From a virus (lineage: Duplodnaviria; Heunggongvirae; Uroviricota; Caudoviricetes), in IMG/VR virus record IMGVR_UViG_2778261687_000006, positions 1-19,839 of that record: DNA of 19,839 nucleotides; one strand, written 5' to 3'. The notes beneath the pieces are model-generated. The model was not told where the DNA came from, made no database searches, and saw only the letters and a program-made list of their open reading frames with translations. The position numbers were made by a program, and so were the translations under genes. Position 1 is the stretch's first letter; every line of letters starts with the position of its first letter. Positions 5,149 to 19,323 of the stretch are shown in pieces.

Positions 5149-5161
5149 TAAAAAACCAAAT

Positions 5162-5422: not shown

Positions 5423-5483
5423 ATCGACGATCTTTTTAGTTATCAATGTAATCAATAAGTTATGTGGATAAGCGAGGGTAAAG

Positions 5484-6197
5484 ATGGAAAGTAATATCAA
5501 AGGGTTAGTTTCCGCCGGGCATGAGATGGCTTCGGAACTGAAAGCAGAATGTGGTGCCGTTGATATGCGCAGTGTGGCAAAGCTGATCAGCGATTTGGCA
5601 ACGCAACTGGAAGTGCAACTGGTGCGTGCTAATGCGCTGGCCGAAGACCACCAGAGAGCCATTGAGTCAATTAAACAGGCTGATTCGGCTGTTAAGTTGG
5701 CACACGAGAAGTTTTCGGCGCTGGCTGCGGAGAATGCAAGACTGAAGGCCGGGGCTATGTATTTCTCATATGGCTCTGAATTTAGTTTCGAGTGTCACAA
5801 AACTGCTGAGGAGGCTATCGCTGCTGCTGAGGCTGCAATTGACGACTATAGAGGCGATGCTTGCGATGGATGGAGCGAAGAGGTCGAAAGCATTTGCTGG
5901 GGGGTAATTATTCAGCAGGCAACCAAGGTCGGTGAACGCAAGAAGAGGAAATGCGACAGAGTATCACCATGGATTGAAAGAGTTTGTGATTATGAGCTTC
6001 GACCTAATGTCGAAACCCCAGCCACCGATGCTTTCCTTGCTGAAGTTCGGGCGCAGGGGGTGGATATGGCTCGTAACGCGATGATTGATTTTGTTGATGG
6101 TGAAGTTGGGCCAAACAAGAACGTTCCGGGGCTGATTAGAGGCGCAGAGATATGCGTAAGTATTGCTGAACAGCTTCGCAAAGGAGGCAACCAGTGA
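5484..6197 (+). CDS. Hypothetical phage early protein with coiled-coil N-terminus (possibly Ea22-like)
   Basis: 237 aa; RBS GAGGG before the ATG; heptad-like Ala/Glu-rich N-terminal region; stop overlaps the start of the next gene. Confidence 0.55.
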   Translation: MESNIKGLVSAGHEMASELKAECGAVDMRSVAKLISDLATQLEVQLVRANALAEDHQRAIESIKQADSAVKLAHEKFSALAAENARLKAGAMYFSYGSEFSFECHKTAEEAIAAAEAAIDDYRGDACDGWSEEVESICWGVIIQQATKVGERKKRKCDRVSPWIERVCDYELRPNVETPATDAFLAEVRAQGVDMARNAMIDFVDGEVGPNKNVPGLIRGAEICVSIAEQLRKGGNQ

Positions 6198-6613
6198 GCG
6201 AAATTAATTACCAGGCACTGCGTGAGGCGGCGGAACGTGCAATTCCAGCAATGGAACGCCTGTTAATGTTGCCAGCTGATGATGATTTGTTAAGTGAACA
6301 GGAACTTAAAGATTACGGTGTGGATATTGATGCGCTCAACGCCTTCAAATTTCTGGCCGGACCAGAAACCGTGCTGGCACTACTGGATGAACGGGAAAGG
6401 AACCAGCAATACATCAAATCCCGCGATCAGGAGAACGAGGATATTGCGCTAACGGTTGGGAGGCTGCTAATCGAAAACGGCCGGCTTGTTGCCGATACGC
6501 TACGCCACTTAGCTGATAACGAAATCGACTCTGATTATTTTGCTATCACCTCAACGAATGAGAACGGTACTGAAATTGATCATGAGATGGCTATTACTGA
6601 GCCGCCAGGATGA
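6194..6613 (+). CDS. Ead/Ea22-like family phage protein (recollection-based assignment)
   Basis: 139 aa; GTG start with strong RBS AAGGAGG 6 nt upstream; N-terminus MSEINYQALREAAERA and VLALLDERERNQQ resemble lambdoid Ea22-like proteins as I remember them. Confidence 0.55.
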   Translation: MSEINYQALREAAERAIPAMERLLMLPADDDLLSEQELKDYGVDIDALNAFKFLAGPETVLALLDERERNQQYIKSRDQENEDIALTVGRLLIENGRLVADTLRHLADNEIDSDYFAITSTNENGTEIDHEMAITEPPG

Positions 6614-6761
6614 TGCACGTGTGCGCTGGCGTATAAAATCGATCAGCAGAAAACGGTGCGGTAAGTGCGGCGAGAGAGTTCCTGTTAATTCATGCCCGTG
6701 TAATGGTGACTCGCAATGCTGGGTGAATAAAGGCTGGCATGAAACGAAATTAATAGTGTGA
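6540..6761 (+). CDS. Possible small Cys-rich (zinc-ribbon-like) protein; coding status uncertain
   Basis: ORF overlaps the 3' end of the previous gene in another frame; C-terminal CGKCGERVPVNSCPCNGDSQCW has CxxC ... CxC spacing. Its stop codon lies inside the GTGACATGTCAC palindrome. Confidence 0.25.
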   Translation: MLSPQRMRTVLKLIMRWLLLSRQDDARVRWRIKSISRKRCGKCGERVPVNSCPCNGDSQCWVNKGWHETKLIV

Positions 6762-6769
6762 CATGTCAC
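6758..6769. repeat. Perfect 12-bp palindrome GTGACATGTCAC, copy 1
   Basis: Read directly; overlaps the stop codon of the 6540..6761 ORF, upstream of the terS terminator. Confidence 0.9.
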
Positions 6770-6810
6770 GAGTAGATTATGCATGATGAATTTGATGGGT
6801 TTTGAATACT

Positions 6811-6837
6811 GCCGCCAACTATGGCGGCTTTATTTTG
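6811..6837 (+). terminator. Terminator-like hairpin upstream of terS
   Basis: GCCGCC-aactat-GGCGGC followed by TTTATTTTG; same stem sequence as the 4061-4086 terminator. Confidence 0.5.
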
Positions 6838-6843
6838 CATGGT

Positions 6844-6872
6844 ACTATTACCACAACGGTAACTATTACCAC
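6844..6872 (+). repeat. Tandem direct repeat ACTATTACCAC (6844-6854 and 6862-6872) immediately upstream of terS
   Basis: GGTACTATTACCACAACGGTAACTATTACCACGG read directly; includes an inverted GGTAA-cta-TTACC arrangement. Confidence 0.8.
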
Positions 6873-6879
6873 GGTGGTT

Positions 6880-7476
6880 ATGATGCCTGCTGAACCTAAA
6901 ACCTATAAACGCAAATCAACGCAATTTAAGCCACTAACAGCAATGCAGGAGGCTTATTGCCAGTCATACATCAAAACGCCTGAAAACCAGACTCAGGCAG
7001 CGATTAACGCAGGATTTTCCCCAAATACAGCGGCAGTTAAAGCCAGTGTCATGATGCGCGATGAACGCATTCAAAAACGGATTGCCGAGTTGATGGAGGA
7101 GCGCAACAAACGAATGCGCGTCAGTGCTGATTACGTTCTCATGCGCCTGGTGGAGATCGACCAGATGGACGTGATTGATATCCTCAACGACGATGGGAGC
7201 CTTAAGCCAATCCGCGAGTGGCCGAAAATCTGGCGCACTACGCTTAGTGGCTTTGATCTGTCGTCGACCATCATGAACATGAACGAGGATTCGATAGAGA
7301 CAATCCTCAAAAAAATTAAATGGCCTGACAAGGTGAAGAACCTTGAGCTGATTGGTAAGCATGTTGATGTCAACGCGTTCAAAGAACGTCTGGATGTTAA
7401 TGTGAATGTGACAATTGCTGATCGCATAGCAGCAGCCAGGAAGCGACTCAAAGAACGTCAGGATGGTAATCAGTGA
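6880..7476 (+). CDS. Terminase small subunit (TerS)
   Basis: About 198 aa from the ATGATG at 6880; positioned immediately upstream of and overlapping the large terminase gene; basic helical N-terminal region (TAVKASVMMRDERIQKRIAEL) consistent with a DNA-binding small terminase. The track's TTG-start extension translates a direct-repeat region. Confidence 0.65.
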   Translation: MMPAEPKTYKRKSTQFKPLTAMQEAYCQSYIKTPENQTQAAINAGFSPNTAAVKASVMMRDERIQKRIAELMEERNKRMRVSADYVLMRLVEIDQMDVIDILNDDGSLKPIREWPKIWRTTLSGFDLSSTIMNMNEDSIETILKKIKWPDKVKNLELIGKHVDVNAFKERLDVNVNVTIADRIAAARKRLKERQDGNQ

Positions 7477-8948
7477 CAGATACAGCGTTATCTCCTGAAG
7501 AGCAGTTGATCGAGGATATTGCAGGGTTCACTCACGATCCGCTTGGCTATGCCCTCTATGCGTTCCCGTGGGGGGAAGAGGGGACTGAACTGGCACATGC
7601 TACCGGTCCACGTCAGTGGCAGGCTGATGCGTTCCGAGAGATACGTGATCACCTGCAGAATCCAGAGACGCGCTATCAGCCGCTTATGCTGGCACGTGCT
7701 TCTGGTCACGGTATTGGTAAATCCGCATTCATCTCAATGCTGATCAACTGGGGCATGTCCACTTGCGAGGATTGTAAGGTCGTGGTGACCGCCAATACCG
7801 ACAACCAGCTACGAACGAAGACCTGGCCGGAAATTATCAAGTGGTCGAACCTTGCTATCACGAAAGACTGGTTCACCTGTACCGCTACCGCGATGTACAG
7901 CAATGATCCTGGGCACGACAAGCGGTGGCGAGCTGACGCAATCCCCTGGTCTGAGCACAATACTGAGGCGTTCGCCGGACTACACAACGAGCGCAAACGT
8001 ATCATCGTGGTATTCGATGAAGCGTCGAACATTGCGGATCTGGTGTGGGAAGTTGCCGAGGGTGCGCTTACGGACGAAGACACTGAGATTATCTGGGTGG
8101 CGTTCGGAAACCCGACGCGTAATACCGGACGTTTCCGAGAATGTTTCCGCAAATATAAACACCGCTGGAAAACTGCGCAGATTGACAGCCGGACGGTTGA
8201 AGGCACTAACAAACAGCAGTTGCAGAAATGGGTTGATGACTACGGGGAAGACAGCGACTTCGTTAAAATCCGTGTGCGTGGCATATTCCCTGATGCATCT
8301 GAATTGCAGTTTATCCCTACCGGTCTTACTGACGAGGCAATGAAACGGGTGGTAACCGCTGCGCAGGTGGCACATGCTCCGGTGATAATCGGCGTTGACC
8401 CGGCATACTCCGGCGTTGATGACGCGGTGATATACCTGCGGCAGGGGCTGCACAGTAAGGTGCTGTGGACTGGCAACAAGACCACCGACGATCTGATTAT
8501 GGCGAAGCGTATCGCTGACTTTGAAGACCAGTATCAGGCCGACGCGGTGTTCATCGACTTCGGTTACGGTACTGGCCTGAAGTCAATCGGTGACGACTGG
8601 GGGCGCACATGGCAACTTGTTCCGTTCGGTGGCGCGTCTACTGACCCGCAGATGCTCAACAAGCGTGGGGAGATGTTCAACTCATGTAAGACATGGCTGA
8701 GGCTGGGCGGGATGCTGGATGACCAGGAAACAGCGGACGACCTGTCGACGGCAGAGTACAAAGTTCGCGTGGACGGTAAAATCGTTATCGAACCGAAGGA
8801 AGATATCAAAGAGCGACTTGGGCGTTCGCCGGGGAAAGGCGATGCGCTATTGCTGACGTTTGCTTTCCCTGTGTCGAAGCGCCTGCGAATTCCCGGTCAG
8901 CAGAACCAGCAAGGCAAGGCCATCACAGATTACGACCCGTTTGCGTGA
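7473..8948 (+). CDS. Terminase large subunit (TerL), ATPase plus nuclease
   Basis: 491 aa; Walker A-like ASGHGIGKSAF, Walker B-like RIIVVFDEASN, C-terminal acidic nuclease-like motif VIIGVDPAYSG. GTG start overlaps the terS stop (GTGA). Confidence 0.85.
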   Translation: MTDTALSPEEQLIEDIAGFTHDPLGYALYAFPWGEEGTELAHATGPRQWQADAFREIRDHLQNPETRYQPLMLARASGHGIGKSAFISMLINWGMSTCEDCKVVVTANTDNQLRTKTWPEIIKWSNLAITKDWFTCTATAMYSNDPGHDKRWRADAIPWSEHNTEAFAGLHNERKRIIVVFDEASNIADLVWEVAEGALTDEDTEIIWVAFGNPTRNTGRFRECFRKYKHRWKTAQIDSRTVEGTNKQQLQKWVDDYGEDSDFVKIRVRGIFPDASELQFIPTGLTDEAMKRVVTAAQVAHAPVIIGVDPAYSGVDDAVIYLRQGLHSKVLWTGNKTTDDLIMAKRIADFEDQYQADAVFIDFGYGTGLKSIGDDWGRTWQLVPFGGASTDPQMLNKRGEMFNSCKTWLRLGGMLDDQETADDLSTAEYKVRVDGKIVIEPKEDIKERLGRSPGKGDALLLTFAFPVSKRLRIPGQQNQQGKAITDYDPFA

Positions 8949-8949
8949 T

Positions 8950-9690
8950 TTATTGCTTATTTTTCACGGCTTCAGCAATCATTCTCTCAGCCTGTGATGT
9001 ATATGTTTTTCGCAAGGGTTCATGGCCCATATGCAATACGATACCTTCCTTTTCTTTTTCCTTTAATTCTTGTATGAGATTATTTATTTTGGCCTCCCTA
9101 TCTTCAAGCATTCTGGCGGACTTTTCTGCCTCAATCTTTAACGCTGCAGCCACTGATTGCATGTTTTCCAGCTTCTTATTCAATTCCAAAACCTTATCGG
9201 AGAGCCTATCTCTTTCCGCCGTTAGCTCACCCATCCTGGCCTGTGACTCCGTAATTCTTTCCTTCATAGCCTGTATGTCTTTTTCGGCGCCAGTCTTAAC
9301 TTTGTCGTATGTCACATCGTGCTTTGCCTTCAGGCGCTGCAGGCGTGTGGCGCGATGAATGCGCTTGGCCTTCCGGTGGTTCTCTATCGAATCGTAATTA
9401 TCAAGAGGTTTGGCTTGCCACTTTGAAATCACGTTGTTGATCCAGGGCATGCCGCCGCACAGGATTATTGCTGAAACACATGGGAATGCTAATACCGTTT
9501 TCCAACTGCTATTACTGGAAATGTAGGTGATCTTGTCGATGATGCTGGAGTCGCTGAGGAGTAAGTATAAAATCGACTTCCAGTTAAAGGCGCACCATGA
9601 CAGTGCGAACGCTCCAAACACTGGATTTCTGACCCTTTGCGCAGCGGTATTAACGGTTGAAGATAGGTATTCTTTAAGTGATTCAAGCAT
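8950..9690 (-). CDS. AT-rich cargo gene: membrane-anchored coiled-coil protein of unknown function (candidate superinfection-exclusion or abortive-infection factor)
   Basis: 246 aa; two hydrophobic segments near the N-terminus, then a long charged heptad-like region (KERITESQARMGELTAERDRLSDKVLELNKKLENMQ). AAGGG RBS. Convergent with terL with a 1-nt gap. Visibly AT-rich compared with neighbours. Confidence 0.55.
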   Translation of the reverse strand: MLESLKEYLSSTVNTAAQRVRNPVFGAFALSWCAFNWKSILYLLLSDSSIIDKITYISSNSSWKTVLAFPCVSAIILCGGMPWINNVISKWQAKPLDNYDSIENHRKAKRIHRATRLQRLKAKHDVTYDKVKTGAEKDIQAMKERITESQARMGELTAERDRLSDKVLELNKKLENMQSVAAALKIEAEKSARMLEDREAKINNLIQELKEKEKEGIVLHMGHEPLRKTYTSQAERMIAEAVKNKQ

Positions 9691-9720
9691 GTCCAGGCCC
9701 TTTTAGGTTTTTTTCTGATT

Positions 9721-9735
9721 CTACCTTTAAGGTAA
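9721..9735. promoter_or_regulatory. Dyad operator-like site CTACCTTTAAGGTAA in the promoter of the 8950..9690 gene
   Basis: Lies in the spacer of a candidate minus-strand promoter (ATGACC ... TAGAAT) about 40 bp upstream of the start codon. Confidence 0.45.
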
Positions 9736-9757
9736 TCTTCGGTCATTATGAAAAACG

Positions 9758-9803
9758 TATCCCTATGAGGGGATAATGTCGTTGATATCCTCTGATGAGG
9801 ATA
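9758..9803. promoter_or_regulatory. Two tandem dyads of a second type, TATCC-N8-GGATA (9758-9775 and 9786-9803)
   Basis: TATCCctatgaggGGATA and TATCCtctgatgaGGATA, 28 bp apart, upstream of the 8950..9690 promoter. Confidence 0.4.
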
Positions 9804-9829
9804 AAACAAAGCCAGCTCATCGGCTGGCT
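9801..9829 (-). terminator. Rho-independent terminator after the 9850..10221 gene
   Basis: On the minus strand: AGCCAGC-cgatgag-GCTGGCT hairpin followed by TTGTTTTAT, about 20 nt past the stop codon. Confidence 0.5.
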
Positions 9830-9833
9830 GTTT

Positions 9834-9845
9834 GTGACATGTCAC
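9834..9845. repeat. Perfect 12-bp palindrome GTGACATGTCAC, copy 2
   Basis: Read directly; 5 nt beyond the stop of the 9850..10221 gene, before its terminator hairpin. Confidence 0.9.
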
Positions 9846-9849
9846 GGTG

Positions 9850-10221
9850 TTATTGCTCGCTTAACTTCTGCTTCAGCAAGTAACCTTCAAGCATCCAGAT
9901 TTTGTTTACAGCATTCTGCCGGGCAATCTTCCGACCAATTTCCGCATCAAAGTTTTCCGGGCTTGCACAGGCGCTCTCTCCGGTGACGGTGAAGCCGTTG
10001 CGCAGCACCAGAACGCAGAACGTCAGCAGAGAAAGTGATTCGTGCGGCTGGTAGTTTACCTCTCCGCCAGTATGTTTCGCTTTTATGGCTACGCCAAAGA
10101 CACCATCTTCTGCTGTGAAATATGCCTCCTGAGCAATAATGCTCTCGATATGGTCTGGCGTAACGCGCGGCGCGGCTAAACCTTTAGCCTGAATTTCAGA
10201 TTCAATGTCTTTGTCACTCAT
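9850..10221 (-). CDS. Conserved hypothetical phage protein (123 aa)
   Basis: ORF with RBS AAGGTGA; sequence feels familiar from enterobacterial prophages but I cannot name the family with confidence. Confidence 0.55.
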   Translation of the reverse strand: MSDKDIESEIQAKGLAAPRVTPDHIESIIAQEAYFTAEDGVFGVAIKAKHTGGEVNYQPHESLSLLTFCVLVLRNGFTVTGESACASPENFDAEIGRKIARQNAVNKIWMLEGYLLKQKLSEQ

Positions 10222-10424
10222 AGTCTAATCTCACCTTAAAAAAATGCCCGGCGAACCGGGCGAACTGGAAGCAATGAGTTATGCCTTCCGTGGCTGTACT
10301 GGTTTACAGCATGAAGTCATCGCAATGGCGTCCTGCTGTAAAAAGGGCGGTGATAGTCCTTCAAGGGAAACCATCACCGCCAAGCCCCTGGAACTTCTGG
10401 CATCACGGTCCTTAGGCGTGATTC

Positions 10425-10501
10425 TGGCGTGGCATGCAGGATTCGAACCTGCGACCAACCGCTTAGAAGGCGGTTGCTCTGTCCAACTGAGCTAATGCCA
10501 C
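10425..10501 (-). tRNA. tRNA-Arg (anticodon UCU), phage-encoded
   Basis: Hand-folded cloverleaf on the minus strand: acceptor GTGGCAT/ATGCCAC, D-arm GCTC-AGTTGGACA-GAGC, anticodon arm ACCGC-CTTCTAA-GCGGT (U33, anticodon TCT, A37), variable loop TGGTC, T-arm GCAGG-TTCGAAT-CCTGC, discriminator G, encoded CCA. Acceptor and anticodon stems differ from host argU as I recall it. Confidence 0.85.
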
Positions 10502-10823
10502 AACGCTGAGAGCACTTAGCCTGTTAAGGCGCCACACTTTGTCGCGGCTCCATAAATGCTCTCATCGTTGCACCCTCGTCTCTTCCGAGGCGTCACACCG
10601 AATCGCCGGGATGGTGAATCCCCGTGCGCGGAATAAAACCGCTCGACTTGCACATTCCGGCTACCTGGTTCGTTTGCCCGAGCAAGGGAGGGTGCCCCTT
10701 AAACGTATCCAGACCGCTATCGTCGCATGTGCCATACGCCGTACTGCTCAACATAAAAGCTCACTCCACCTGTTCAATTTAACGACAAGCCAGTCAGGTT
10801 AGTAACCGGAATGAACTCTTTTG

Positions 10824-10838
10824 TTACCTGAAAGGTAA
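10824..10838. promoter_or_regulatory. Dyad operator-like site TTACCTGAAAGGTAA
   Basis: Lies beside a minus-strand TTGACA (10855-10860) and about 70 bp upstream of a -10-like GATAAT (10899-10904) for the plus-strand operon. Confidence 0.45.
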
Positions 10839-10928
10839 TAATTTGCGCATTAAATGTCAACTGTCTACGACAAGTAAATCATATGTGGTTAAATTGGTGA
10901 TAATTTAATTGCGTACGGAGTCATTGAT

Positions 10929-11186
10929 ATGTGCATGGGTAGCTCACCATCAGTGCCTGCAACACCAGAAGTTCAGGCAGCACCACAGGAGCAGGATGCC
11001 GCCGTTGTTGATGCCCGCGACGAAGAAACTCGTCGCCGTCGCGCTGCTGCTGGTCGTAGTTCTACGCTGCTTGAGGCGGTGCAGAACCGCATGAACGATA
11101 TGTTCAATAAGTCGAATCTCTACCAGTCGCTGCCGGTGTTCAGCGGTATCTGCGTGTTAACTACTCCGTCGCAACTGGCCCACTAA
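10929..11186 (+). CDS. Hypothetical protein (85 aa); may be part of a frame-disrupted larger gene
   Basis: RBS GGAG 8 nt upstream of the ATG. A second frame stays open from 11111 to 11267 without any start codon and translates to protein-like sequence. Confidence 0.4.
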   Translation: MCMGSSPSVPATPEVQAAPQEQDAAVVDARDEETRRRRAAAGRSSTLLEAVQNRMNDMFNKSNLYQSLPVFSGICVLTTPSQLAH

Positions 11187-11279
11187 CGGCTGGCGAATTC
11201 ACTGCTGGTATCAGTCTTGATGTTGATGCCAATACGCCGTATCCGATCCGCTCAAAAGTAACTGGTTAAGGTGATATCG

Positions 11280-11630
11280 ATGTCAGGTGAGAAACCAAGA
11301 TACCGCGTTCTGCGCCTCTCTCATATCCATAACACTCTGTGGCCGGAGGGGGCAGAAATCGAATACGAAGGTGAGCCTGGTAGCGCACTGGAACCTGTTA
11401 ACGATGCAGCCAGACAGGCAAAAGCAAAGGTAGCAGGAAAGGTGTCAATGGCAGCAACCAGTACCAAAATCATCAACGATGTGTCAGATGATGGTGAGCT
11501 GGATAAGCTCCGTGAAGAGTACGAATTGCTCTTTAACGAGAAGCCACACCATAACGCCAAAGCCGAAACGCTCCGCGAGAAGATCGCAGATAACCGGTTC
11601 TGGTATTCAGCGTGGAACATGGAAAGGTGA
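11280..11630 (+). CDS. Hypothetical protein (116 aa)
   Basis: ATG at 11280 with RBS GGTGA 6 nt upstream; acidic, helical-looking sequence. The +1 frame stays open across its last 150 nt. Confidence 0.5.
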   Translation: MSGEKPRYRVLRLSHIHNTLWPEGAEIEYEGEPGSALEPVNDAARQAKAKVAGKVSMAATSTKIINDVSDDGELDKLREEYELLFNEKPHHNAKAETLREKIADNRFWYSAWNMER

Positions 11631-11679
11631 ATTAACGAGAAGTGTTTTCCTGTTTAAATCGTTCCCTATCTCGGTGGTT

Positions 11680-12240
11680 ATGCGTCACTGGTCACGCGCT
11701 ATGGGTATGCCGTCTGCTGGTGGGCGTGCGGCATATATTGCGACGTTTATTGCCAGTACGACCATTCTTGGAGCTTTGTCGCAGCAACTTAACGACCTTG
11801 CGTCTGGTCGTAATCCTCGCGAGATGACAGGAGAAGATGCCGCAAAATTCTGGCTTGGTGCTCTATTGAAAGGTGGTGGTCTTGGCCTTTACGGTGACTT
11901 TTTATTGTCAGATCACACTAGGTACGGAAGCGGCGCGCTGGCGTCGATGCTTGGCCCGGTGGCTGGTCTGGTTGATGACGTAGTGAAGATTGCTCAGGGC
12001 ATACCGTTAAATGCTGTGGAAGGGAAGAGTGAGCAGACTGGTGGTGATCTGGTGAAGCTGGGGAAAGGTTTGATGCCAGGTGCGAATCTCTGGTACTTGA
12101 AGGCGGCTCTCGATCACATGATCTTTAACCAGATGCAGGAGTATTTTTCACCAGGCTATTTGCGTAAAATGGAGCAACGTTCGAAGAAAGAGTTTAACCA
12201 GACATACTGGTGGCGACCTCAGGATGTCACTCCGCAATAA
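11680..12240 (+). CDS. Hypothetical protein with Gly-rich hydrophobic segments; start poorly defined (ATG 11680 or GTG 11674), possible frameshift fusion with the upstream ORF
   Basis: Long open frame 11479..12240, protein-like only after about 11640; no well-spaced RBS at the candidate starts. Confidence 0.45.
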   Translation: MRHWSRAMGMPSAGGRAAYIATFIASTTILGALSQQLNDLASGRNPREMTGEDAAKFWLGALLKGGGLGLYGDFLLSDHTRYGSGALASMLGPVAGLVDDVVKIAQGIPLNAVEGKSEQTGGDLVKLGKGLMPGANLWYLKAALDHMIFNQMQEYFSPGYLRKMEQRSKKEFNQTYWWRPQDVTPQ

Positions 12241-12249
12241 GGATGAGAA

Positions 12250-12390
12250 ATGATTGCTTTTATTCTTGTTGTATTTGTGCTTGTTGCCCTTGGCGTTATG
12301 AATCGTAAATGTATCATTGAAGACGGTGAATTTGCTGTAGCAGTTGTTTTGATATTATCTGGTGTAGCAGGGTACATAGGTTTGTCATAG
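12250..12390 (+). CDS. Small hydrophobic peptide (46 aa, two predicted membrane segments); not in the ORF track
   Basis: Hand translation MIAFILVVFVLVALGVMNRKCIIEDGEFAVAVVLILSGVAGYIGLS; RBS AGGA upstream; stop TAG at 12388-12390. Confidence 0.35.
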   Translation: MIAFILVVFVLVALGVMNRKCIIEDGEFAVAVVLILSGVAGYIGLS

Positions 12391-12397
12391 CTTGAGT

Positions 12398-12409
12398 GTG
12401 ACATGTCAC
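12398..12409. repeat. Perfect 12-bp palindrome GTGACATGTCAC, copy 3 (extended form TGTGACATGTCACA)
   Basis: Read directly; in the convergent gap between the 12250..12390 ORF and the 12434..12691 gene. Confidence 0.9.
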
Positions 12410-12433
12410 AGGCCGCTTTCGCGGCCCTTAAAT

Positions 12434-12691
12434 TTACCGGATTTGTTTTCGTAATTGTTCGGCACAATAGTCGAGATGTGTTTGCAGATCCTGCATAGAC
12501 ATCTGTGAGCTGGTGACGTAGTTAATCAGTGCAGTCAGTTCGGCAAGTGGGCCATCGACATTAAATCCATCCTTATCGAGATCCCGGAGTAATTTCATCA
12601 AGTGCGATCCCTCCACCAGTGACCTGACGCCTCCCGGCGTGTGAATCCTTTCGGTAAATCCGTCTTCCAGTGGATAGTGATACTGCTGCAT
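12434..12691 (-). CDS. Hypothetical protein (85 aa from the ATG at 12691)
   Basis: ORF track 12434..12757 with a GTG at 12757; the internal ATG at 12689-12691 has GGAG about 8 nt upstream. Divergent from the tailspike gene. Confidence 0.45.
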   Translation of the reverse strand: MQQYHYPLEDGFTERIHTPGGVRSLVEGSHLMKLLRDLDKDGFNVDGPLAELTALINYVTSSQMSMQDLQTHLDYCAEQLRKQIR

Positions 12692-12767
12692 CTTATCTTC
12701 TCCATGCAATAACTGTATATTTATGCAGTAGCAAATAATTTGTTTGCTATCCAGCACGTTTTGCGAA

Positions 12768-12782
12768 TCACCTGAAAGGTAA
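12768..12782. promoter_or_regulatory. Dyad operator-like site TCACCTGAAAGGTAA
   Basis: In the divergent intergenic region between the 12434..12691 gene and the tailspike gene; followed by the ATCCATATGTGGTT box (12809-12822) and a -10-like TAGAAT (12833-12838). Confidence 0.45.
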
Positions 12783-12886
12783 TATCTGTTCGTATTTATG
12801 GTTTATCTATCCATATGTGGTTTTTCAGGTAATAGAATAACCGGATATGCGGCGCAACGGGTGCTGCGACTATCTGGAGATTTAAC

Positions 12887-15571
12887 ATGACGGTCTCAAC
12901 CGAAGTTGACCATAACGAATATACAGGTAATGGCGTTACGACTTCATTTCCTTATACCTTTCGAATTTTTCAGAAGTCAGACCTGGTTGTGCAGGTTGTT
13001 GATCTGGATGAAAATATAACCACTCTTGTGCTTGATACTGATTATTCGATTACAGGTACTGGTGGATACACGGGGGGGAATGTTGTTTTATCAACTGCTT
13101 TAGGCAATGGGTATAAGATTTCTATTTCAAGAGAGTTGCCGGTTACCCAAGAAACAGACCTAAGGAACCAGGGGAAGTTTTTTGCAGAAGTGCATGAGGA
13201 TGCATTTGATAAGTTAACTATGCTTGTTCAGCAGGTAAGAAGTTGGTTTAGTCTGTCGTTAAGAAAACCATCCTTTGTAGCCAACTATTATGACGCCCTG
13301 GGCAACTATATCAGAAATCTCAGGGATCCATCTCGGCCGCAAGATGCTGCTACAAAGAACTATGTAGACAGTATTTCTGAAACCAATCTCAACAGAACGC
13401 TAAGAACACCTGAACCTATACCCACACTTCCATCTGCCGCTGTCAGGGCGAACAAGATAATAGCCTTCGATAATAGTGGGTCTCCTTTTGTAACATTGCC
13501 GCCATCTGGTTCTGCCACTGATGTTCTTGTTGAATTAGTGAAACCAACAGGTGCCGGGTTATCAGGTTATAGCGATTCTATCCAGTATCCTGACGGTACT
13601 GTTGGTAGTGCCATTAAAGATCAGAATTTCAGGAAAAAAATAATCTACAAACTTCCATTTCAGTTCGCTGGGTATTCTGATGCACTGGCGGCAATTGGAG
13701 CTGGAAGCATCATATACCCGCAGGGTGCTGACTATGATGATGATGGTCTACTCTTCATTAACTATGTGCCTAATGCTGGAGGGGCGCTTAGGGTTATAGT
13801 TGTTTATAACCAGGCAGGAGAGCAAGTAACGTGGTTTTATAGTCCAAACAGTAGTAATCAGTCTGTGGCTATATATGGCGGAAGTTCATCACGTAGATTG
13901 TATGACAGACGTCTTGGGGATGATTTTGTTTATTATTATGACATAACCACATTACCCGCAGCAGGTAGCACGCTTTCAGGGCACACAATAACGACAATTC
14001 AGTCGGCTGGATCACATATGTGCATTGAGGGTAATTTACTCTTCTGCACATTAAACGCGACACCAGTAGGATTGTCACAATCACAGACTGTTATAAATTC
14101 TTATCGTCTTGATACAGGTGAGAAGCAGGGAACAATAAATGTCTCTCAGATGCTTACAGGGTTTGCAACTCCAGAGCTCTCCCCTACCTACTATTACATG
14201 GTATGGAAAATTCAGGGTATAGCATACAAAAATGGGATCCTTCATATAGGCGTAGGTGGCAGTTATCGTCCTACATTTGATGATGCAAAATACCCTGTTC
14301 ATGATTACGGAGTCCTCAGAGTGTCACTCTCTGGTGAGTTAATAGACCACTCTGTTGTGAAATCAGATAAGTTGATGACTTATCTGGCATCAAACGGTTG
14401 CACCGTCTCAAGAACAGAGTCAGAGGGATGTTTCAAGCACCCTGACGGCACTATCCATTCAATTCTTATCGGTGATATGGCTGAATCATCTCCTAGCACA
14501 CCCAATGGCATTGTTATAATGAGGGAGTTTTCAAGAGATGGGTTTGACATGCTGGATGCCGCTTCAGGATACTGCCCGATACCAACATATGGATTTAATA
14601 GGCTCATGCGTTCGGAGCATGGGGAACTGCGCGATCCAGTCTTAAATACAGTCTTCAGCAGTGTTACTCAAATTCTTGATTTAATGGCTTCATTAAACAT
14701 AACTGAGTTCTCTTGGTTTTCAACCATTGCTCCTTCGCTCACCACGATACCTGGTCTTAACTACGTAATAGGACAAATTTACCATGTTACTAATATGAAC
14801 AATGCAGGATTCATTATTGAATCCTCCGGTACTGTACTTGGGCTAGAAATTTATTCCGTAGTTGGCAGAATTGGGTCATGGACAGCTACAAGGCGCTCAT
14901 TGTCAGGAACAAAGCTTAATATTAATAATTCAGGTGGTTTAGGCAAAATATCATTTACAACGTCAACAGGAAAAGAAGTTGGCATCGCTCAAATAAACTA
15001 TACCGGAACCTCTACGCCTCTTGTTATCGGCTCAGGGGGTACTTTAAACCCTAATGCTATTTTCTTCTTCACAAATCCGACAGTGACAAGTGAAAGTGGT
15101 GGGACTCAATCTCTTCAGATTTACAGTGATCAGGTATTGCCTGGCGTCGCTAGCGCGCAGTCTAACGGGAGTGCATCATTTAAATGGACTCAGGTCTACG
15201 CCGATTCTGGTTCCATTAACACATCTGACAGAAGAAAGAAGACAGATTTCGAGGATATAAGTGAAGCCGAAAAGCGTGTGGCTATCAAGATTAAGGGAAT
15301 GATTTGTCGGTACAGAATGAAGGATGCGGTAGCTATTAAAGGCGATGGCGCAAGATATCATATAGGTGCAATTGTCCAGGATGTTATCTCTGCGTTCGAG
15401 GATGAAGGGCTAGATCCCATGCGTTATGGGATGGTTTGCTACGATAAGTGGGATAAGAAGGAACCAGAATATGATGAAAATGGAATCATGACATTCTCAG
15501 GTTGCGAAGCTGGTGATGGTTACTCTTTGAGATATGATGAGATGTTATGTTTCATTATTTCTGCTATTTAA
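12887..15571 (+). CDS. Tailspike / tail fibre protein with C-terminal intramolecular chaperone (peptidase S74-like self-cleaving domain)
   Basis: 894 aa; N-terminus MTVSTEVDHNEYTGNGVTTSFPYTFRIF resembles the T7-gp17-type particle-binding domain and, from memory, epsilon15-like tailspikes; Ser/Thr/Gly-rich central region; C-terminal ...INTSDRRKKTDFEDISEAEKRVAIKIK... matches the endosialidase-type chaperone domain. RBS GGAG. Confidence 0.85.
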   Translation: MTVSTEVDHNEYTGNGVTTSFPYTFRIFQKSDLVVQVVDLDENITTLVLDTDYSITGTGGYTGGNVVLSTALGNGYKISISRELPVTQETDLRNQGKFFAEVHEDAFDKLTMLVQQVRSWFSLSLRKPSFVANYYDALGNYIRNLRDPSRPQDAATKNYVDSISETNLNRTLRTPEPIPTLPSAAVRANKIIAFDNSGSPFVTLPPSGSATDVLVELVKPTGAGLSGYSDSIQYPDGTVGSAIKDQNFRKKIIYKLPFQFAGYSDALAAIGAGSIIYPQGADYDDDGLLFINYVPNAGGALRVIVVYNQAGEQVTWFYSPNSSNQSVAIYGGSSSRRLYDRRLGDDFVYYYDITTLPAAGSTLSGHTITTIQSAGSHMCIEGNLLFCTLNATPVGLSQSQTVINSYRLDTGEKQGTINVSQMLTGFATPELSPTYYYMVWKIQGIAYKNGILHIGVGGSYRPTFDDAKYPVHDYGVLRVSLSGELIDHSVVKSDKLMTYLASNGCTVSRTESEGCFKHPDGTIHSILIGDMAESSPSTPNGIVIMREFSRDGFDMLDAASGYCPIPTYGFNRLMRSEHGELRDPVLNTVFSSVTQILDLMASLNITEFSWFSTIAPSLTTIPGLNYVIGQIYHVTNMNNAGFIIESSGTVLGLEIYSVVGRIGSWTATRRSLSGTKLNINNSGGLGKISFTTSTGKEVGIAQINYTGTSTPLVIGSGGTLNPNAIFFFTNPTVTSESGGTQSLQIYSDQVLPGVASAQSNGSASFKWTQVYADSGSINTSDRRKKTDFEDISEAEKRVAIKIKGMICRYRMKDAVAIKGDGARYHIGAIVQDVISAFEDEGLDPMRYGMVCYDKWDKKEPEYDENGIMTFSGCEAGDGYSLRYDEMLCFIISAI

Positions 15572-15576
15572 AAAAT

Positions 15577-15600
15577 GCCCCGTAGAGGGGCTTTTTTTTT
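15577..15600. terminator. Bidirectional rho-independent terminator shared by the tailspike and acyltransferase genes
   Basis: GCCCC-gtaga-GGGGC hairpin flanked by AAAAA upstream and TTTTTTTTT downstream. Confidence 0.75.
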
Positions 15601-16588
15601 ACTTGGCTATCACCCTATTTAACAAAGGAGTTTTTGAAAGTATCACAGCTATCAACAGGGACGCAAAGACATAAAATATAGTTGCAACAGGTATTCCCCA
15701 TGCATAATTTGATACTGGAGCTATTTTCCATGTTATAAATATAATAATAGGATGTATAAGATAAATTCCAAATGCATATTCGGAAATTAGAGTTACAAGT
15801 TTATTTGCATTTTTGCTTATTCTGTCTGCGTATCCAATGCAGGCGCAGGTTGTTGCTATTGCTGTCATGCCAACAATGGGGCTAAAGTTGCTTAGGTTTA
15901 CTCCTTTGATCCCATGAATCAATATAGCCTTATTTGTAAAGACACATATAACCGCAAGGATAACAGCAGTTAACGAAATGAAAGCGCGTAATTTTATGAT
16001 ATGGCTTTCAAGTCGTGCAACTATACATCCGGCAAAAATATAGAACATTAATGTACTTACAAATGGAATATCTATAGATGGTGCATTAGGAATAAAATTC
16101 TTTAGTTGTGGGTATAAAGAATTTCCATAGAATAGAATTAAAAATATCATCACGTTATACCGCAAATCCATGCGTTGGCATCCAATAATTATCATCGGGA
16201 GAAACATGTAAATCGCAATATAATGATACATAAACCATAGATGAACAGCAGATGGCTTCATGATATTAAAGCTGCTTACTGAAGTATCTTTAAATATAAT
16301 GTAATAAGATGCATATATTACCCACCAAAATACAAGAGGGACAAATAAGACATTAAAACCCTTTTTAATGTAATCATGGAATTCGAATTCCTTTTTATGG
16401 TAGTAAAGAAACCCTGTTATAACTATGAAAATACCAATGCATTGCTTTGATATGGCGCTATATACGTTAGCCCAATCCCAATCAGGCGAAGACTTTGCAC
16501 CAACTGGACCAGCGGCAACATGCAGCAACACCACCAGCACAATGGCGATGAAACGAGCTAAAACTACGCCATAGTTCTTCTCATTCAT
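15599..16588 (-). CDS. Acyltransferase family 3 integral membrane protein, likely O-antigen acetyltransferase (lysogenic conversion)
   Basis: 329 aa, about 10 hydrophobic segments; N-terminal VLARFIAIVLVVLLHVAAG matches the acyltransferase-3 signature (R-x-x-x-H in TM1); visibly AT-rich; sits directly after the tailspike gene as serotype-converting acetylases do in P22-like/Sf6-like phages. Confidence 0.8.
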   Translation of the reverse strand: MNEKNYGVVLARFIAIVLVVLLHVAAGPVGAKSSPDWDWANVYSAISKQCIGIFIVITGFLYYHKKEFEFHDYIKKGFNVLFVPLVFWWVIYASYYIIFKDTSVSSFNIMKPSAVHLWFMYHYIAIYMFLPMIIIGCQRMDLRYNVMIFLILFYGNSLYPQLKNFIPNAPSIDIPFVSTLMFYIFAGCIVARLESHIIKLRAFISLTAVILAVICVFTNKAILIHGIKGVNLSNFSPIVGMTAIATTCACIGYADRISKNANKLVTLISEYAFGIYLIHPIIIFITWKIAPVSNYAWGIPVATIFYVFASLLIAVILSKTPLLNRVIAK

Positions 16589-16641
16589 TTTAATATTTAT
16601 CCAATATTTTTAATGGGTTCCACAATCATTAACTACAATAT

Positions 16642-16656
16642 ATACCCATAAGGTAA
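16642..16656. promoter_or_regulatory. Dyad operator-like site ATACCCATAAGGTAA
   Basis: Between the acyltransferase and lysis genes; followed by ATCCATATATGGTT (16685-16699) and a -10-like TATGAT (16706-16711). Confidence 0.45.
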
Positions 16657-16752
16657 TTTAGTTAAGAGTTATCAGAGGTAAACTTATCCATATATGGTTT
16701 ATTGTGTATGATGGACTTACCAACTAAGGGGGTTCATTATGCACAGTAAACG

Positions 16753-17166
16753 GTGGCTGATATGTCAGCTCAGCTAACCAGTGAGTCTTTAAATCAGTGG
16801 CTTAGCATGGGTTCTCTGGCTGCTGTCATTGTCGGGGTTCCTCCAGAGGTCGCTCTTGGTGCTTTATCCGGCGCGGTAATATTTATTACCTCTGCCGTTG
16901 AGTATCCAATACGCCGTCGGGTTCTCCTATCGATGCTCAGCTTTCTCTGCGGGCTACTCTTCTACAAACCGACTGCATCAATTCTTATCGGCGTAGCCAG
17001 CATGATCCCAACTATCACGCAGGACTCATTCGAGAAAGGGATCGTCTTTTCTGCTGGCGCGTTCGTGTCGGCAATAGTCGCAGTACGTATTGGAATCTGG
17101 CTCTATCACCGCTCAGACAATCCACGCGATTTAATCCCTGGGAGAAAAGACGATGACAACTCATGA
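16753..17166 (+). CDS. Holin-like membrane protein (about 3 TM segments, charged C-terminus); start uncertain (GTG 16753 or ATG 16762)
   Basis: First gene of the lysis cassette; hydrophobic segments and C-terminal [19 protein letters not shown] strong SD AAGGGGG (16725-16732) is positioned for an ATG at 16739 in another frame (12-codon ORF). Confidence 0.5.
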   Translation: MADMSAQLTSESLNQWLSMGSLAAVIVGVPPEVALGALSGAVIFITSAVEYPIRRRVLLSMLSFLCGLLFYKPTASILIGVASMIPTITQDSFEKGIVFSAGAFVSAIVAVRIGIWLYHRSDNPRDLIPGRKDDDNS

Positions 17167-17461
17167 TCTGCTTTTACTTATTGCCAATGCAGTTATTTGT
17201 ACTGGCATAGCAATTCGCGTTGTCACATTCCGGCGTAACGGATCTCAACATCGAAGATGGGGAGGGTGGCTTGCTTATTTCCTTATTGTTGCTGCGGCCA
17301 GTATTCCTGTTCGTGTCGTCTATGCAATCTGGTTACGCACGCCAATGGCTGTGGATTTATCTGAGGTTATTATCAACGCTGTCATGCTTGCCGCTGTTAT
17401 TAAAACACACGGTAACGTTGTTCAGATTTTCAAAATATCGAGGTCTAAACATGGAGATTAA
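17153..17461 (+). CDS. Second holin/antiholin-like small membrane protein
   Basis: 102 aa with three hydrophobic segments; RBS GGGAG; overlaps both neighbours, immediately upstream of the endolysin. Confidence 0.5.
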
Positions 17462-18080
17462 ACAATTCCAGCGAGCTGCTGGTATTAGCGAGGCGCTGGC
17501 CGCACGCTGGTTCTCGCATATAACTTCTGCGATGAAAGAGTTTGGTATCAGAAAACCCGAAGATCAGGCAATGTTTATTGCTCAGGTCGGGCATGAGTCT
17601 GGAGGCTTCACCCGGTTGCAGGAGAATTTCAACTACAGCGTAACTGGACTGGCTAACTTCGTTCGGGCTGGGCGTCTCACTCAGGGACAGGCCAACGCAT
17701 TGGGGCGACGCGCAGGAGAACCACCATTGCCACTTGAGCGCCAGAGAGCGATTGCCAATCTGGTGTACAGCAAACGCATGGGGAACAATGCCCCCGGCGA
17801 TGGCTGGAATTACCGAGGTCGCGGACTTATCCAGATTACCGGTTTGAATAACTATCGTGACTGCGGAAACGGCTTGAAAGTTGACTTGCTGGAGAATCCT
17901 GAACTGCTGGCGCAGGACGAATACGCGGCTCGTAGCGCGGCGTGGTTCTTCTCCAGCAAAGGTTGCATGAAGTATACAGGCGATATTGCACGTGTAACTC
18001 TGATTATCAATGGTGGCCGGAACGGCATCGACGACCGGCGCGCGCGGTACATCACTGCCAGTAAGGTGCTGGCGGTATGA
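17451..18080 (+). CDS. Endolysin, glycoside hydrolase family 19 (chitinase-like lysozyme)
   Basis: 209 aa from the ATG at 17451 (RBS GAGG); GHESGGF catalytic region and [16 protein letters not shown] matching the GH19 signature; located between holin-like and spanin genes. Confidence 0.85.
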
Positions 18081-18574
18081 TCTGGGCATTCGCAAAAGCA
18101 TACAGGAAACAGTTGGTTATCATGGTGATGCTTGCTGTTCTGGTCATATCAGGAGTTGTAGCTTGGAATGCACACGGCAGTCGTCAGTACGACGCCGGGT
18201 ATGCGCAGGCACAGGAAGATCAGAAACAGGCTAATGATAAGGCCAGGTCACAACGTGATCAGGAGAAAACACAAATTGAACGTGAAGCACAATCCCGTAT
18301 CGATGTGGCGCGTGTTGATGCTGAGCATGCTAATGCCGCTGCTGACAGCCTGCGCGCCGAGCTTGACAAAACCAAGCGACTCGCCGAACACTATACCGGA
18401 TCTTTCCCCACTGGCACGCCAGCCAGCAAGGTCATCGGTGTGCTCGCCGACATGCTTGAAGAAAGCAATCGAGTTTACAACGCAACAGCAGCTGAGGCTG
18501 AAAAGTATCGGATTGCAGGAGAATCCTGCGAACAGCAATACGATTCACTGAAGAAGCAAAAATCGTGGTACTGA
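18077..18574 (+). CDS. Rz-like i-spanin
   Basis: 165 aa; N-terminal TM ([18 protein letters not shown]) followed by a charged coiled-coil periplasmic domain; start overlaps the endolysin stop (ATGA). Confidence 0.7.
18303..18551 (+). CDS. Rz1-like o-spanin lipoprotein, embedded in the +1 frame of the Rz gene
   Basis: Embedded ORF with signal [17 protein letters not shown] (lipobox LTAC) and a Pro-rich mature region ([25 protein letters not shown]). Start codon choice uncertain (18303, 18318 or 18333). Confidence 0.5.
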   Translation: MWRVLMLSMLMPLLTACAPSLTKPSDSPNTIPDLSPLARQPARSSVCSPTCLKKAIEFTTQQQLRLKSIGLQENPANSNTIH

Positions 18575-18704
18575 TTTCCGGTGACGGTATATAAAACGGT
18601 ACTAGAAAAATTAAGTTTTGGAAAAATGTTATCACTCAATTGGTTATGATTGTCGTAAATAATTGAGTGGGAATGATTTGACCCTGCACTATGAATGAAC
18701 AAAA

Positions 18705-18730
18705 CCCTCTGTTACTACAGAGGGTTTTTT
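18705..18730. terminator. Bidirectional rho-independent terminator after the lysis cassette
   Basis: CCCTCTGT-tact-ACAGAGGG hairpin followed by TTTTTT, preceded by AAAA on the other side. Confidence 0.7.
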
Positions 18731-18768
18731 ATCTTCAAGAATTATAGGATTGAAGTTACTAACATCGA

Positions 18769-19308
18769 TTAATTAAACCAGCTGTCCGATTTGTTCTCTT
18801 CTGCTTTGCCCACGCTTTTCATCAGATCGCGACCGCCTTCAGTCATATTTCTGTTGGCGTCAGCTTCAGATTGCACCACATCGGTTTGCGCAGCTTTGTG
18901 CTTCAGTTCCTGATCGATAAATTCGTTTTCTCGCTTAACGCGGGCTTCTTCTTTCGCCAGCGCCAGTTTTTGTTTCTGAATCTCTAAGCTGCGTAGCTCA
19001 TCTTCATAACTTTGATCGCGTTTTTTGTCCGCAGAGGCTTCGGCGTCCAGTTTATCCTGACGAGCTTTCTTATTTGCCGCTGCCGTTGCCGCTCTTTTGT
19101 TAGCGGCGGCCTGGGCATTTGCGCGACGTTGCTTCTCTTGCTGGATTTCCCTGTTGCGCTCCGCGACCCATTCGTCATGCTGCCTTTGCTCTTCATTTTT
19201 ACCTTGCTGTTCCGCTTCTGCGACAGCAGAGAGTTGATCCTGCAATGATGAGGCGATAGCCGGATAGCTTAAGGAGGCTAAGATGGCGCAAAGAAAAACT
19301 TTCTTCAT
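18769..19308 (-). CDS. Secreted, highly charged coiled-coil protein (signal peptide; Lys/Glu/Gln/Ala-rich)
   Basis: 179 aa; N-terminal signal MKKVFLCAILASLSYPAIA, then low-complexity charged helical sequence. Could be a host gene or a phage moron. Confidence 0.55.
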   Translation of the reverse strand: MKKVFLCAILASLSYPAIASSLQDQLSAVAEAEQQGKNEEQRQHDEWVAERNREIQQEKQRRANAQAAANKRAATAAANKKARQDKLDAEASADKKRDQSYEDELRSLEIQKQKLALAKEEARVKRENEFIDQELKHKAAQTDVVQSEADANRNMTEGGRDLMKSVGKAEENKSDSWFN

Positions 19309-19323
19309 GACTCCTCCTGATTA

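Follow-up and report, generated by a model that had tools for sequence, protein, structure and literature searches.

A 46-codon gene between the ejection and tailspike genes of a phiV10-like prophage encodes a catalogued putative membrane protein and lies in an exchangeable slot

The 46-codon open reading frame (ORF) at 12250..12390 on the plus strand of the window, by which we mean the whole 19,839-nt stretch of viral DNA that was analysed, is a real but ordinary small accessory phage gene encoding a putative membrane protein. A reading of the sequence without database searches (the sequence-only reading) had called the ORF unannotated. As a feature, however, it is an already known, catalogued phage protein of the putative membrane class: the identical protein stands in RefSeq as WP_040092269.1, and orthologs are annotated in phiV10, SPC32H, SPN1S and E. 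coli. The present upshot is a corrected label, since the ORF was catalogued and not overlooked. The gene is the last of the late structural operon in a prophage of the phiV10/epsilon15 type, where it forms one of several alternative cassettes behind the ejection gene gp17. Of the functions that had been proposed for it, small membrane toxin and holin-like peptide did not survive tests of promoter, Rfam, tail and family match, and exclusion of incoming phages is kept here as a tentative reading.

Results

The ORF opens with the ATG at 12250, closes with the TAG at 12388-12390 and encodes the 46-aa product MIAFILVVFVLVALGVMNRKCIIEDGEFAVAVVLILSGVAGYIGLS, in agreement with the coordinates and translation of the sequence-only reading. 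Its start is preceded by the Shine-Dalgarno sequence AAGGA (12239..12243, plus strand, read directly), which contains the AGGA that had been claimed as the ribosome-binding site, lies 6 nt before the ATG and overlaps the TAA of gp17 (12238-12240). The gap between the gp17 stop and the ORF is 9 nt, and the same overlap of Shine-Dalgarno sequence and stop codon is seen in SPC32H, in two metagenome loci (L099 and L101) and in the other cassette types. The 1.7 kb around the locus holds 27 ORFs of at least 20 aa, and the length of the 46-aa ORF is by itself no proof of a gene.

Instead, it is conservation with low dN/dS that identifies the ORF as a genuine protein-coding gene under purifying selection. 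Twelve variant E. coli alleles with synonymous differences, each compared with the window, had 5.5-9.5 synonymous and 2-4.5 nonsynonymous differences (dN/dS 0.07-0.20), and SPC32H had 13 and 6, respectively (dN/dS 0.12; P 9e-5 in a binomial test against neutrality). For three metagenome members of ~50% identity the counts were 22-28 synonymous and 29-34 nonsynonymous (binomial P 2e-4 to 7e-3); among these distant members, dN/dS was 0.25 for L101, and synonymous sites were saturated for L099 and L100. Thus, dN/dS of the ORF ranges overall from 0.07 to 0.25. The sequence-only reading had held that a lack of conservation in relatives would speak against its proposal; the ORF proved to be conserved, which clearly favours a real gene. 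An 82-aa ORF on the opposite strand (12219..12467, minus strand) was also considered as a gene and was rejected, given the low dN/dS in the plus frame and an open stretch on the minus strand that shrinks in homologs, where the frame across the 46-aa ORF goes from 69 to 42 codons.

The product matches PHROG 7892 over residues 1-46 of 46 (E 2.5e-31) and is an ortholog of PhiV10p21 (91% identity) and SPC32H_019 (87% identity). WP_040092269.1, the same protein, is encoded by a CDS in an intact prophage of E. coli JML285. PhiV10p21 is annotated in phiV10 as a 'putative integral membrane protein' with 'two predicted transmembrane helices', and SPC32H_019 and the SPN1S gene are likewise annotated as putative membrane proteins; in E. 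coli, 13 of the 13 matches listed, of 54 matches, are called hypothetical protein. Homologs fall into 48 clusters at 74-91% identity, found in E. coli, Salmonella, Citrobacter and Hafnia. An exhaustive profile search of 1.84 billion representative proteins returned six clusters only, all from the same narrow family and with no named relative among them. Neither the ORF nor the alternative cassette proteins described below had a match above threshold in Pfam, NCBIfam or PADLOC. For the ORF, Pfam at E up to 1 gave only DUF5367 (14 bits versus a cut-off of 25), and a PDB sequence search gave only a spurious match to a designed repeat protein. By sequence, position and architecture, the ORF belongs to the PhiV10p21/PHROG 7892 family; in our literature search, this family came up only in genome annotations.

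Two hydrophobic stretches separated by the charged turn NRKCIIEDGE had been noticed in the peptide, and we find them at residues 2-17 and 28-45 around N18-E27. The first is strongly hydrophobic (summed Hessa dG -4.2), the second moderately so (-0.3), and the loop carries R19, K20, E24, D25 and E27; the GRAVY of the protein is 1.83. AlphaFold2, using a 24-sequence alignment, gave a helical hairpin (H2-19 and H25-45) with a mean pLDDT of 91.7, and hydropathy and structure prediction both support a two-helix membrane hairpin. Basic residues are confined to the loop, yet the net charge of the loop is negative, and the orientation of the protein is not fixed by sequence. The protein ends in GVAGYIGLS with no charged residue after E27, and it has essentially no extramembrane domain. 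The conserved core of the family consists of the loop, (M/L)(N/E)RKG-I-x-acidic, and the C-terminal GVA(G/A)Y-G. Even members of ~50% identity keep the loop motif NRKGII-D/E and the C-terminal GVAGY-G, and helix 2 bears a conserved small-residue motif, S37/G38/G41/G44.

The window is a phiV10-like prophage (Uetakevirus, epsilon15 group) adjoining yfgI/yfgH. Its sequence from 11589 to the last position matches the JML285 prophage and the adjoining chromosome at 99.75% identity. Upstream of 11589, one deletion joint follows another when the sequence is compared with phiV10 and JML285, with breaks in phiV10 coordinates at 3500>3883, 3949>7599 and 8065>18684 and with 4-8 bp overlaps at the joints. 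This prophage has lost its portal, capsid, tail and most ejection genes, and the 46-aa gene is a surviving passenger in it; the same joints were found in none of the complete E. coli genomes of the collection. The frame-disrupted block that the sequence-only reading had seen upstream of the ORF is a deletion scar.

The gp17-type ejection protein gene, a homolog of T7 gp16/IVP-D, survives as a remnant at 11590..12240 on the plus strand (blastn versus phiV10 18684-19335; PHROG 684). It comprises the last 216 codons and the stop, fused out of frame to debris upstream of it in a chimeric ORF (11479..12240), and matches PHROG 684, 'virion structural protein', at profile positions 608-831 of 840 (E 2.7e-108). 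Epsilon15 gp17 has been assigned as a homolog of T7 gp16, or internal virion protein D (PMC4819975), and ejection proteins of the T7 gp16 class are believed to take the DNA conduit across the inner membrane (PMC8954989). Gp17 is also a homolog of P22 gp16. On the other side of the ORF, a convergent 85-aa gene (12434..12691, minus strand; identified by PHROG 450 and annotations) is a homolog of epsilon15 gp19, PhiV10p24 and SPC32H 'ant'; its match to PHROG 450 (E 8.7e-48) runs from residue 23, and the program-made ORF list extends the gene to 12757. The tailspike or tail fibre gene (12887..15571, plus strand; 894 aa; WP_137515051.1, tail fiber domain-containing protein) follows, giving the local order ejection gene, slot, ant, tailspike, with an O-antigen acyltransferase module adjoining as well. 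A lysis cassette with two holin-type genes, endolysin and spanin is located at 16753-18574, 4.4 kb from the 46-aa ORF.

The ORF had been placed between the frame-disrupted block and a palindrome, and both landmarks are there: the deletion joints upstream and, at 12398..12409, the 12-bp perfect palindrome GTGACATGTCAC. This palindrome starts eight bases after the stop of the ORF and forms the conserved right border of the slot that holds the cassette. The window has three exact copies of the sequence, versus 0.04 expected; the one at the slot occupies the same position in phiV10, JML285, SPC32H, Tyrion and epsilon15. A terminator scan placed an intrinsic terminator at 12411..12436 on the plus strand. 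Its stem-loop, GGCCGC-TTTC-GCGGCC (12411-12426; fold -16.4 kcal/mol, z -2.1), begins one base past the palindrome and is followed by a weak T-tract, CTTAAATTTA. The terminator closes the late structural operon, is annotated at this site in phiV10 and epsilon15 and keeps its stem in SPC32H (loop AGAA) and epsilon15 (loop AATA); it is the conserved terminator of the late operon, common to all cassette types.

We surveyed the slot, measured as the stretch from the gp17 stop to the palindrome/terminator, in 80 IMG/VR loci plus GenBank records (87 loci in total) with a gp17 C-terminus ~98-100% identical to that of the window. Type A, the cassette of the window, is present in 34 loci and carries the 46-aa ORF (ORF GC 36.9%). 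The gene is intact in 29 of these, truncated to 33 aa by a frameshift in one, and represented in four by a shared allele with a changed C-terminus; the frameshifts in 5 of the 34 loci suggest that it is dispensable in at least some prophages. Type B (42 loci, GC 42.6%) carries a 57-aa two-TM ORF and a 98-aa multi-TM protein (PHROG 3075), and type C (ZX5-like, 10 loci, GC 37.8%) carries a small TM ORF split over two frames (41+43 aa in ZX5) and a 126-aa lipoprotein with an LVGC lipobox (PHROG 3716). In every cassette type, the first ORF is small and hydrophobic, opens 9-10 nt past the gp17 stop and, in two of the three types, is an intact two-TM hairpin; all types end at the same palindrome/terminator. 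Homology between the types was not detectable (hhalign probability ~1%; different PHROGs).

In epsilon15 itself, the slot holds gp18 (64 aa, two TM, with its stop codon inside the same palindrome), and in Tyrion it holds a 103-aa two-TM protein. Of the more distant phages with gp17 homologs, BcepC6B, VP5, Ab31 and DU_RP_II have the gp17 homolog followed directly by a tail fibre gene, with no slot gene, and Acinetobacter TPWB-05 and Pseudomonas Shamal have other membrane proteins there. Among complete E. coli genomes, this gp17 end is present in 320 of 5426 (~6%), of which 54 have the type A cassette. A slot with three or more alternative cassettes between the gp17 stop and the palindrome/terminator, as described in our census, was not found in the literature searched. 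The census helps to annotate small genes missed by gene callers; ZX5 and Shamal, for example, have unannotated ORFs of this kind.

By sequence comparison, the history of the 46-aa gene is uncoupled from that of gp17. Between the window and SPC32H, synonymous divergence is 0.52 in the ORF versus 1.56 in the gp17 end, and among E. coli phages it is ~0.24 versus ~0.07. GC and GC3 are 36.9% and 24% in the ORF versus 49.9% and 48.6% in gp17; GC in the structural module is 50.6%. Furthermore, in locus L100 a ~50%-identical family member lies behind a 1129-aa gp17 analog, 26.5% identical over the C-terminus, and is there the second gene of its cassette with its own 54-nt spacer. Because cassettes are swapped behind near-identical gp17 ends and the family also occurs behind this 26%-identical analog, the gene is horizontally exchanged accessory cargo and not a dedicated gp17 partner. 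Of the marks of a moron in the sense of Juhala and Hendrix (summarised in PMC3594210), patchy presence and deviant base composition are found for the gene, whereas a promoter of its own is not (consensus and relaxed scans; 9-nt spacer), and the terminator that follows at 12411-12426 belongs to the whole late operon.

The consensus scan, which a weak or non-sigma70 promoter could escape, detected no sigma70-like promoter upstream of the ORF on the plus strand. A relaxed scan of the 350 nt upstream gave nothing usable, and no credible -35/-10 pair was seen in the 3' end of gp17 upon inspection of a seven-sequence alignment. The consensus scan also found no minus-strand promoter for an antisense RNA; the only promoter-like site at the locus lies inside the ORF. 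An Rfam scan of 11000-13500 gave only Histone3 (20 bits versus a cut-off of 34), which is the terminator hairpin. A search for the antisense RNA or antitoxin partner suggested by the sequence-only reading turned up neither a minus-strand promoter-like site nor an Rfam toxin or antitoxin RNA.

Because no promoter of its own was found, we infer that the gene is co-expressed late with gp17. Transcription of the late operon would reach it last, and its own strong Shine-Dalgarno sequence would drive its translation, possibly coupled to that of gp17. The protein would then be produced alongside gp17, either late in lytic growth or following induction, and would insert into the inner membrane of the producing cell. 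It is usually in the repressed lysogen that exclusion is of benefit, and expression in that state is unsupported, since there is no sigma70-like promoter within 350 nt upstream. In the window, expression would need read-through from a surviving late transcript, because the head, tail and most ejection genes have been lost.

Discussion

Given the lack of a promoter, an antisense promoter or an Rfam family, the uncharged tail and the location of the lysis genes elsewhere, the toxin and holin readings are unsupported, and an accessory function at the inner membrane remains. By analogy with known systems, we tentatively favour exclusion or injection immunity as this function. Sitting in the inner membrane, the 46-aa protein would keep related phages that arrive from opening a channel through that membrane with their ejection-protein conduit, and an infected or induced cell would thus be spared both superinfecting DNA and an ion leak that could trigger the holin early. 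Late expression would fit such a function, given that a secondary ejection into a cell near lysis would leak ions and may fire the holin ahead of time. T4 Imm acts during lytic infection, showing that a block of this kind is useful in lytic growth and not just in lysogens. A weak point of the exclusion reading is that the protein has little with which to recognise an incoming conduit; others are the frameshifts in five of the 34 type A copies and the failure of the scans to find a promoter for lysogenic expression.

A broader and more speculative idea, which we regard as improbable as it stands, is that epsilon15-like phages may keep a dedicated injection-immunity locus, with hot-swappable content, between their gp16-type ejection gene and their tailspike gene. 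The unrelated mini membrane proteins encoded there (hairpins of 46-64 aa, with multi-TM and lipoprotein companions) would each block inner-membrane DNA delivery by rival or sibling phages. If true, hardly any known exclusion protein would be smaller than the 46-aa hairpin, whose expression would go with that of the late genes instead of coming from the prophage. If exclusion were confirmed, the protein would be a minimal, genetically tractable tool for studying inner-membrane opening by short-tailed phages. The sieA principle, that exclusion genes lie beside the ejection genes they counter, would then extend to a second group of phages, which are common as E. coli and Salmonella prophages.

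Nearly as plausible as exclusion, and likewise unlikely in its own right, is a modulator of the lysogenic-conversion type, in which the mini-protein would bind to an enzyme or transporter in the host inner membrane and either inhibit it or adjust its activity. Bacterial small regulators such as AcrZ and MgtS are precedents for modulation of membrane proteins. Epsilon15 has an annotated two-TM 'alpha polymerase inhibitor' of 66 aa, directed against the host O-antigen polymerase and encoded near the tailspike and conversion genes, and the slot adjoins the tailspike gene and the O-antigen acyltransferase module. The low GC and horizontal exchange of the cargo are consistent with such a role, and the conserved loop together with S37/G38/G41/G44 in helix 2 would fit helix-helix packing with a partner. 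However, the consensus and relaxed scans found no promoter for expression in a lysogen, the 46-aa protein has no similarity (by eye) to the epsilon15 inhibitor and no family match, and no candidate host target emerged.

It seems rather unlikely that the protein is a lysis-timing factor, that is, a late membrane peptide working with or against the holin in the manner of an antiholin or pinholin, or perturbing the proton-motive force. Its gene would share a transcript with the late genes and runs up to the late terminator, the product is small with two TM helices like class II holins, and the second protein of the type B cassette has a sub-threshold Pfam holin match (E 0.027; 15 bits versus a cut-off of 29). 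In addition, lysis regulators are sometimes placed among structural genes in other phages, as are lysA/lysB of P2. Nevertheless, the protein lacks the hydrophilic, charged C-terminal tail of a holin, is shorter than known holins, has no holin family match in Pfam, PHROG or NCBIfam, and is not adjacent to the endolysin, whose complete cassette of two holin-type genes, endolysin and spanin lies 4.4 kb away; on these grounds the description of the peptide as holin-like is not upheld. Exchange for a cassette with a lipoprotein or a multi-TM protein while gp17 stays unchanged would also be unlike a tuned holin partner.

We give little credence to a helper of gp17, made in stoichiometric amounts through translational coupling, that would chaperone gp17 before packaging, or else be carried in the virion and become part of the inner-membrane channel. 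The 9-nt gap, the Shine-Dalgarno sequence overlapping the gp17 stop and the common starting point of every cassette type are in keeping with such a helper, as is the small two-TM ORF that epsilon15 and two of the three E. coli cassettes have in first place. Synonymous sites are also unusually conserved in the last ~40 codons of gp17, where third-position identity is 0.70-0.85 in all pairwise comparisons, including those with Tyrion, which has a different cassette. We take this conservation to mark a flank for homologous cassette exchange, which would explain it just as well as an embedded signal. On the other hand, the first genes behind 98-100% identical gp17 ends are non-homologous, and a peptide with this GRAVY should enter the membrane of the producing cell rather than be packaged. 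In epsilon15, gp18 is not known to be a component of the virion. A role as gp17 cofactor is contradicted by the free swapping of cassettes, by the family member in second place, behind a 54-nt spacer, downstream of an unrelated gp17 analog, and by the several gp17-bearing relatives without such a gene.

Finally, it is very improbable that the protein is a membrane toxin, whether of type I or stand-alone, that an antisense RNA or antitoxin neutralises. In favour, the peptide is small and very hydrophobic, and a leaky terminator could let the convergent transcript of the ant-like gene run antisense into the ORF. Against this, there is no promoter-like site on either strand bar the one inside the ORF and no Rfam family, the gene sits within an operon at 9 nt from the late structural gene before it, the product has two TM helices rather than the usual one, and the length of the minus-strand frame is not maintained in homologs (69 to 42 codons).

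Returning to exclusion, the known systems offer several comparisons. HK97 gp15 is a small inner-membrane exclusion protein whose gene is inserted within the tail operon with its own promoter and terminator (PMC3594210). The 46-aa gene resembles that of this YebO-like protein in encoding a small predicted inner-membrane protein of a phage inside a late operon, and differs from it in that the scans found no promoter of its own; the terminator behind it is that of the whole late operon. Both HK97 gp15 and T4 Imm block DNA entry without touching the surface receptor. The 46-aa protein may be likened to them by analogy, but it has no Pfam match to the gp15/YebO or Imm families at E up to 1.

The closer parallel is SieA of P22. 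[quoted passage not shown] SieA, of which there are three barely related types, has 162-164 aa, three or four TM helices and the conserved cytoplasmic motif FxRYPxEAxxFNK; it is expressed from the prophage and upregulated on induction (PMC10883804). Like SieA, the 46-aa protein is a predicted inner-membrane protein encoded between a gp16-type ejection gene and a tailspike gene in a temperate short-tailed phage. Both loci are polymorphic, with several unrelated types, only some relatives carrying the gene and an antirepressor gene in the same interval. The 46-aa protein therefore shares the position of SieA. It does not share its sequence, motif or size, having two helices, no FxRYPxEAxxFNK, no sequence similarity and no promoter of its own, and exclusion, a demonstrated function of SieA, is a putative one for the 46-aa protein. 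The analogy is suggestive and not diagnostic; the same slot also holds an antirepressor and other genes. Sequence searches linked the protein to no PADLOC defence model and to none of SieA, T4 Imm and HK97 gp15/YebO, and judged by its sequence the protein lies outside the SieA, Imm, gp15/YebO, holin and type I toxin families.

Within the epsilon15 group, the nearest counterparts by position are epsilon15 gp18, the 57-aa ORF of type B and the split ORF of ZX5, which share with the 46-aa gene the slot, the tight junction to gp17, small size, hydrophobicity and the same right border. Epsilon15 gp18 and the 57-aa ORF also share its hairpin layout, although none of these alternative first ORFs has detectable homology to it. 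The closest likeness is to PhiV10p21, SPC32H_019, the SPN1S gene and WP_040092269.1, all of 46 aa with two hydrophobic helices, 85-100% identical to the protein of the window and encoded in the same place after gp17 and before the palindrome and terminator. The gene itself shows no difference of substance from these, and what sets the window apart is the heavily deleted prophage around it.

Structure of the prophage

The prophage in the window is a deletion derivative. In the coordinates of the related phage phiV10, its deletion joints lie at 33227>35319, 3500>3883, 3949>7599, and 8065>18684, with overlaps of 4-8 bp at the last three. It lacks the portal, capsid, and tail genes and most of the ejection genes, and it retains the genes for terminase, ant, tailspike, and acyltransferase together with the lysis cassette and early region. 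The same set of joints was present in none of the complete E. coli genomes of our collection. Because the left part of the window (1-11596) is 96-98% identical to the intact prophage of E. coli JML285 and the right part (11589-19839) is 99.75% identical, the prophage is also mosaic.

Borders of the cassette slot

The 12-bp palindrome GTGACATGTCAC is found three times in the window, compared with 0.04 occurrences expected: shortly 5' of the small terminase gene (6758-6769), directly past the terminator that follows the large terminase gene (9834-9845), and immediately ahead of the terminator downstream of the 46-aa ORF (12398-12409). The JML285 prophage carries it at the same three positions, and phiV10 has two copies plus one divided between the ends of its record. 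At the right border of the slot, the interval after gp17 that holds exchangeable cassettes, one copy is retained in SPC32H, Tyrion, and epsilon15; in epsilon15 gp17 is only 28% identical, yet the palindrome is still there. GTGACATGTCAC appears to be a binding site for a putative dimeric regulator, which would punctuate the late operon.

On the left side, third-codon-position identity climbs from about 0.45-0.6 to 0.70-0.85 over the final ~40 codons of the gp17 remnant (12120-12240), a rise seen in every pairwise comparison among the window, SPC32H, and Tyrion, despite the different cassettes that follow gp17 in these three. The conserved end may serve as a recombination flank for cassette exchange, or it may harbour a signal embedded in the coding sequence, although a promoter consensus was not detected.

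Beyond the slot, a mechanically called minus-strand ORF of 107 aa with a GTG start (12434-12757) is an over-extension of the ant-like gene, whose start, according to its homologs and a PHROG 450 match, is the ATG at 12691, giving a product of 85 aa. Its likeness to antirepressors is confined to the C-terminal half (PHROG 1760, E = 4e-7). In phiV10 and phiv142-3, additional Bro-N antirepressor genes are inserted between the slot and the ant-like gene, and therefore the entire interval from gp17 to the tailspike gene is mosaic.

Cassettes in other phages

In Pseudomonas phage Shamal, the gp17 homolog and the tail fibre gene lie 464 nt apart, and the space between them is occupied by an unannotated multi-TM ORF of 116 aa (locus L091, 2187-2537). 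Acinetobacter phage TPWB-05 has an 89-aa protein in the same place that is similar, by eye, to the 98-aa E. coli type B protein (PHROG 3075); the distribution of at least one cassette protein may therefore extend across genera.

The ZX5-type cassette begins with another unannotated gene, which can be read as a two-TM hairpin divided between two overlapping frames of 41 aa and 43 aa (phage vB_EcoP_ZX5, locus L007, 4161-4333). All 10 loci of this type share exactly the same split, so a one-off sequencing error does not account for it. The arrangement could represent a pseudogene that has become fixed, a pair of single-TM peptides, or programmed frameshifting. The same cassette encodes a 126-aa lipoprotein (L007, 4372-4752; lipobox LVGC, PHROG 3716), and in Yersinia phage YeP6 a relative, again recognized by eye, lies directly past the gp17 homolog but on the opposite, minus strand (locus L092, 2162-2509). 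Lipoproteins encoded beside genes for receptor-binding or ejection proteins, for example Cor and Llp, count as classic exclusion factors.
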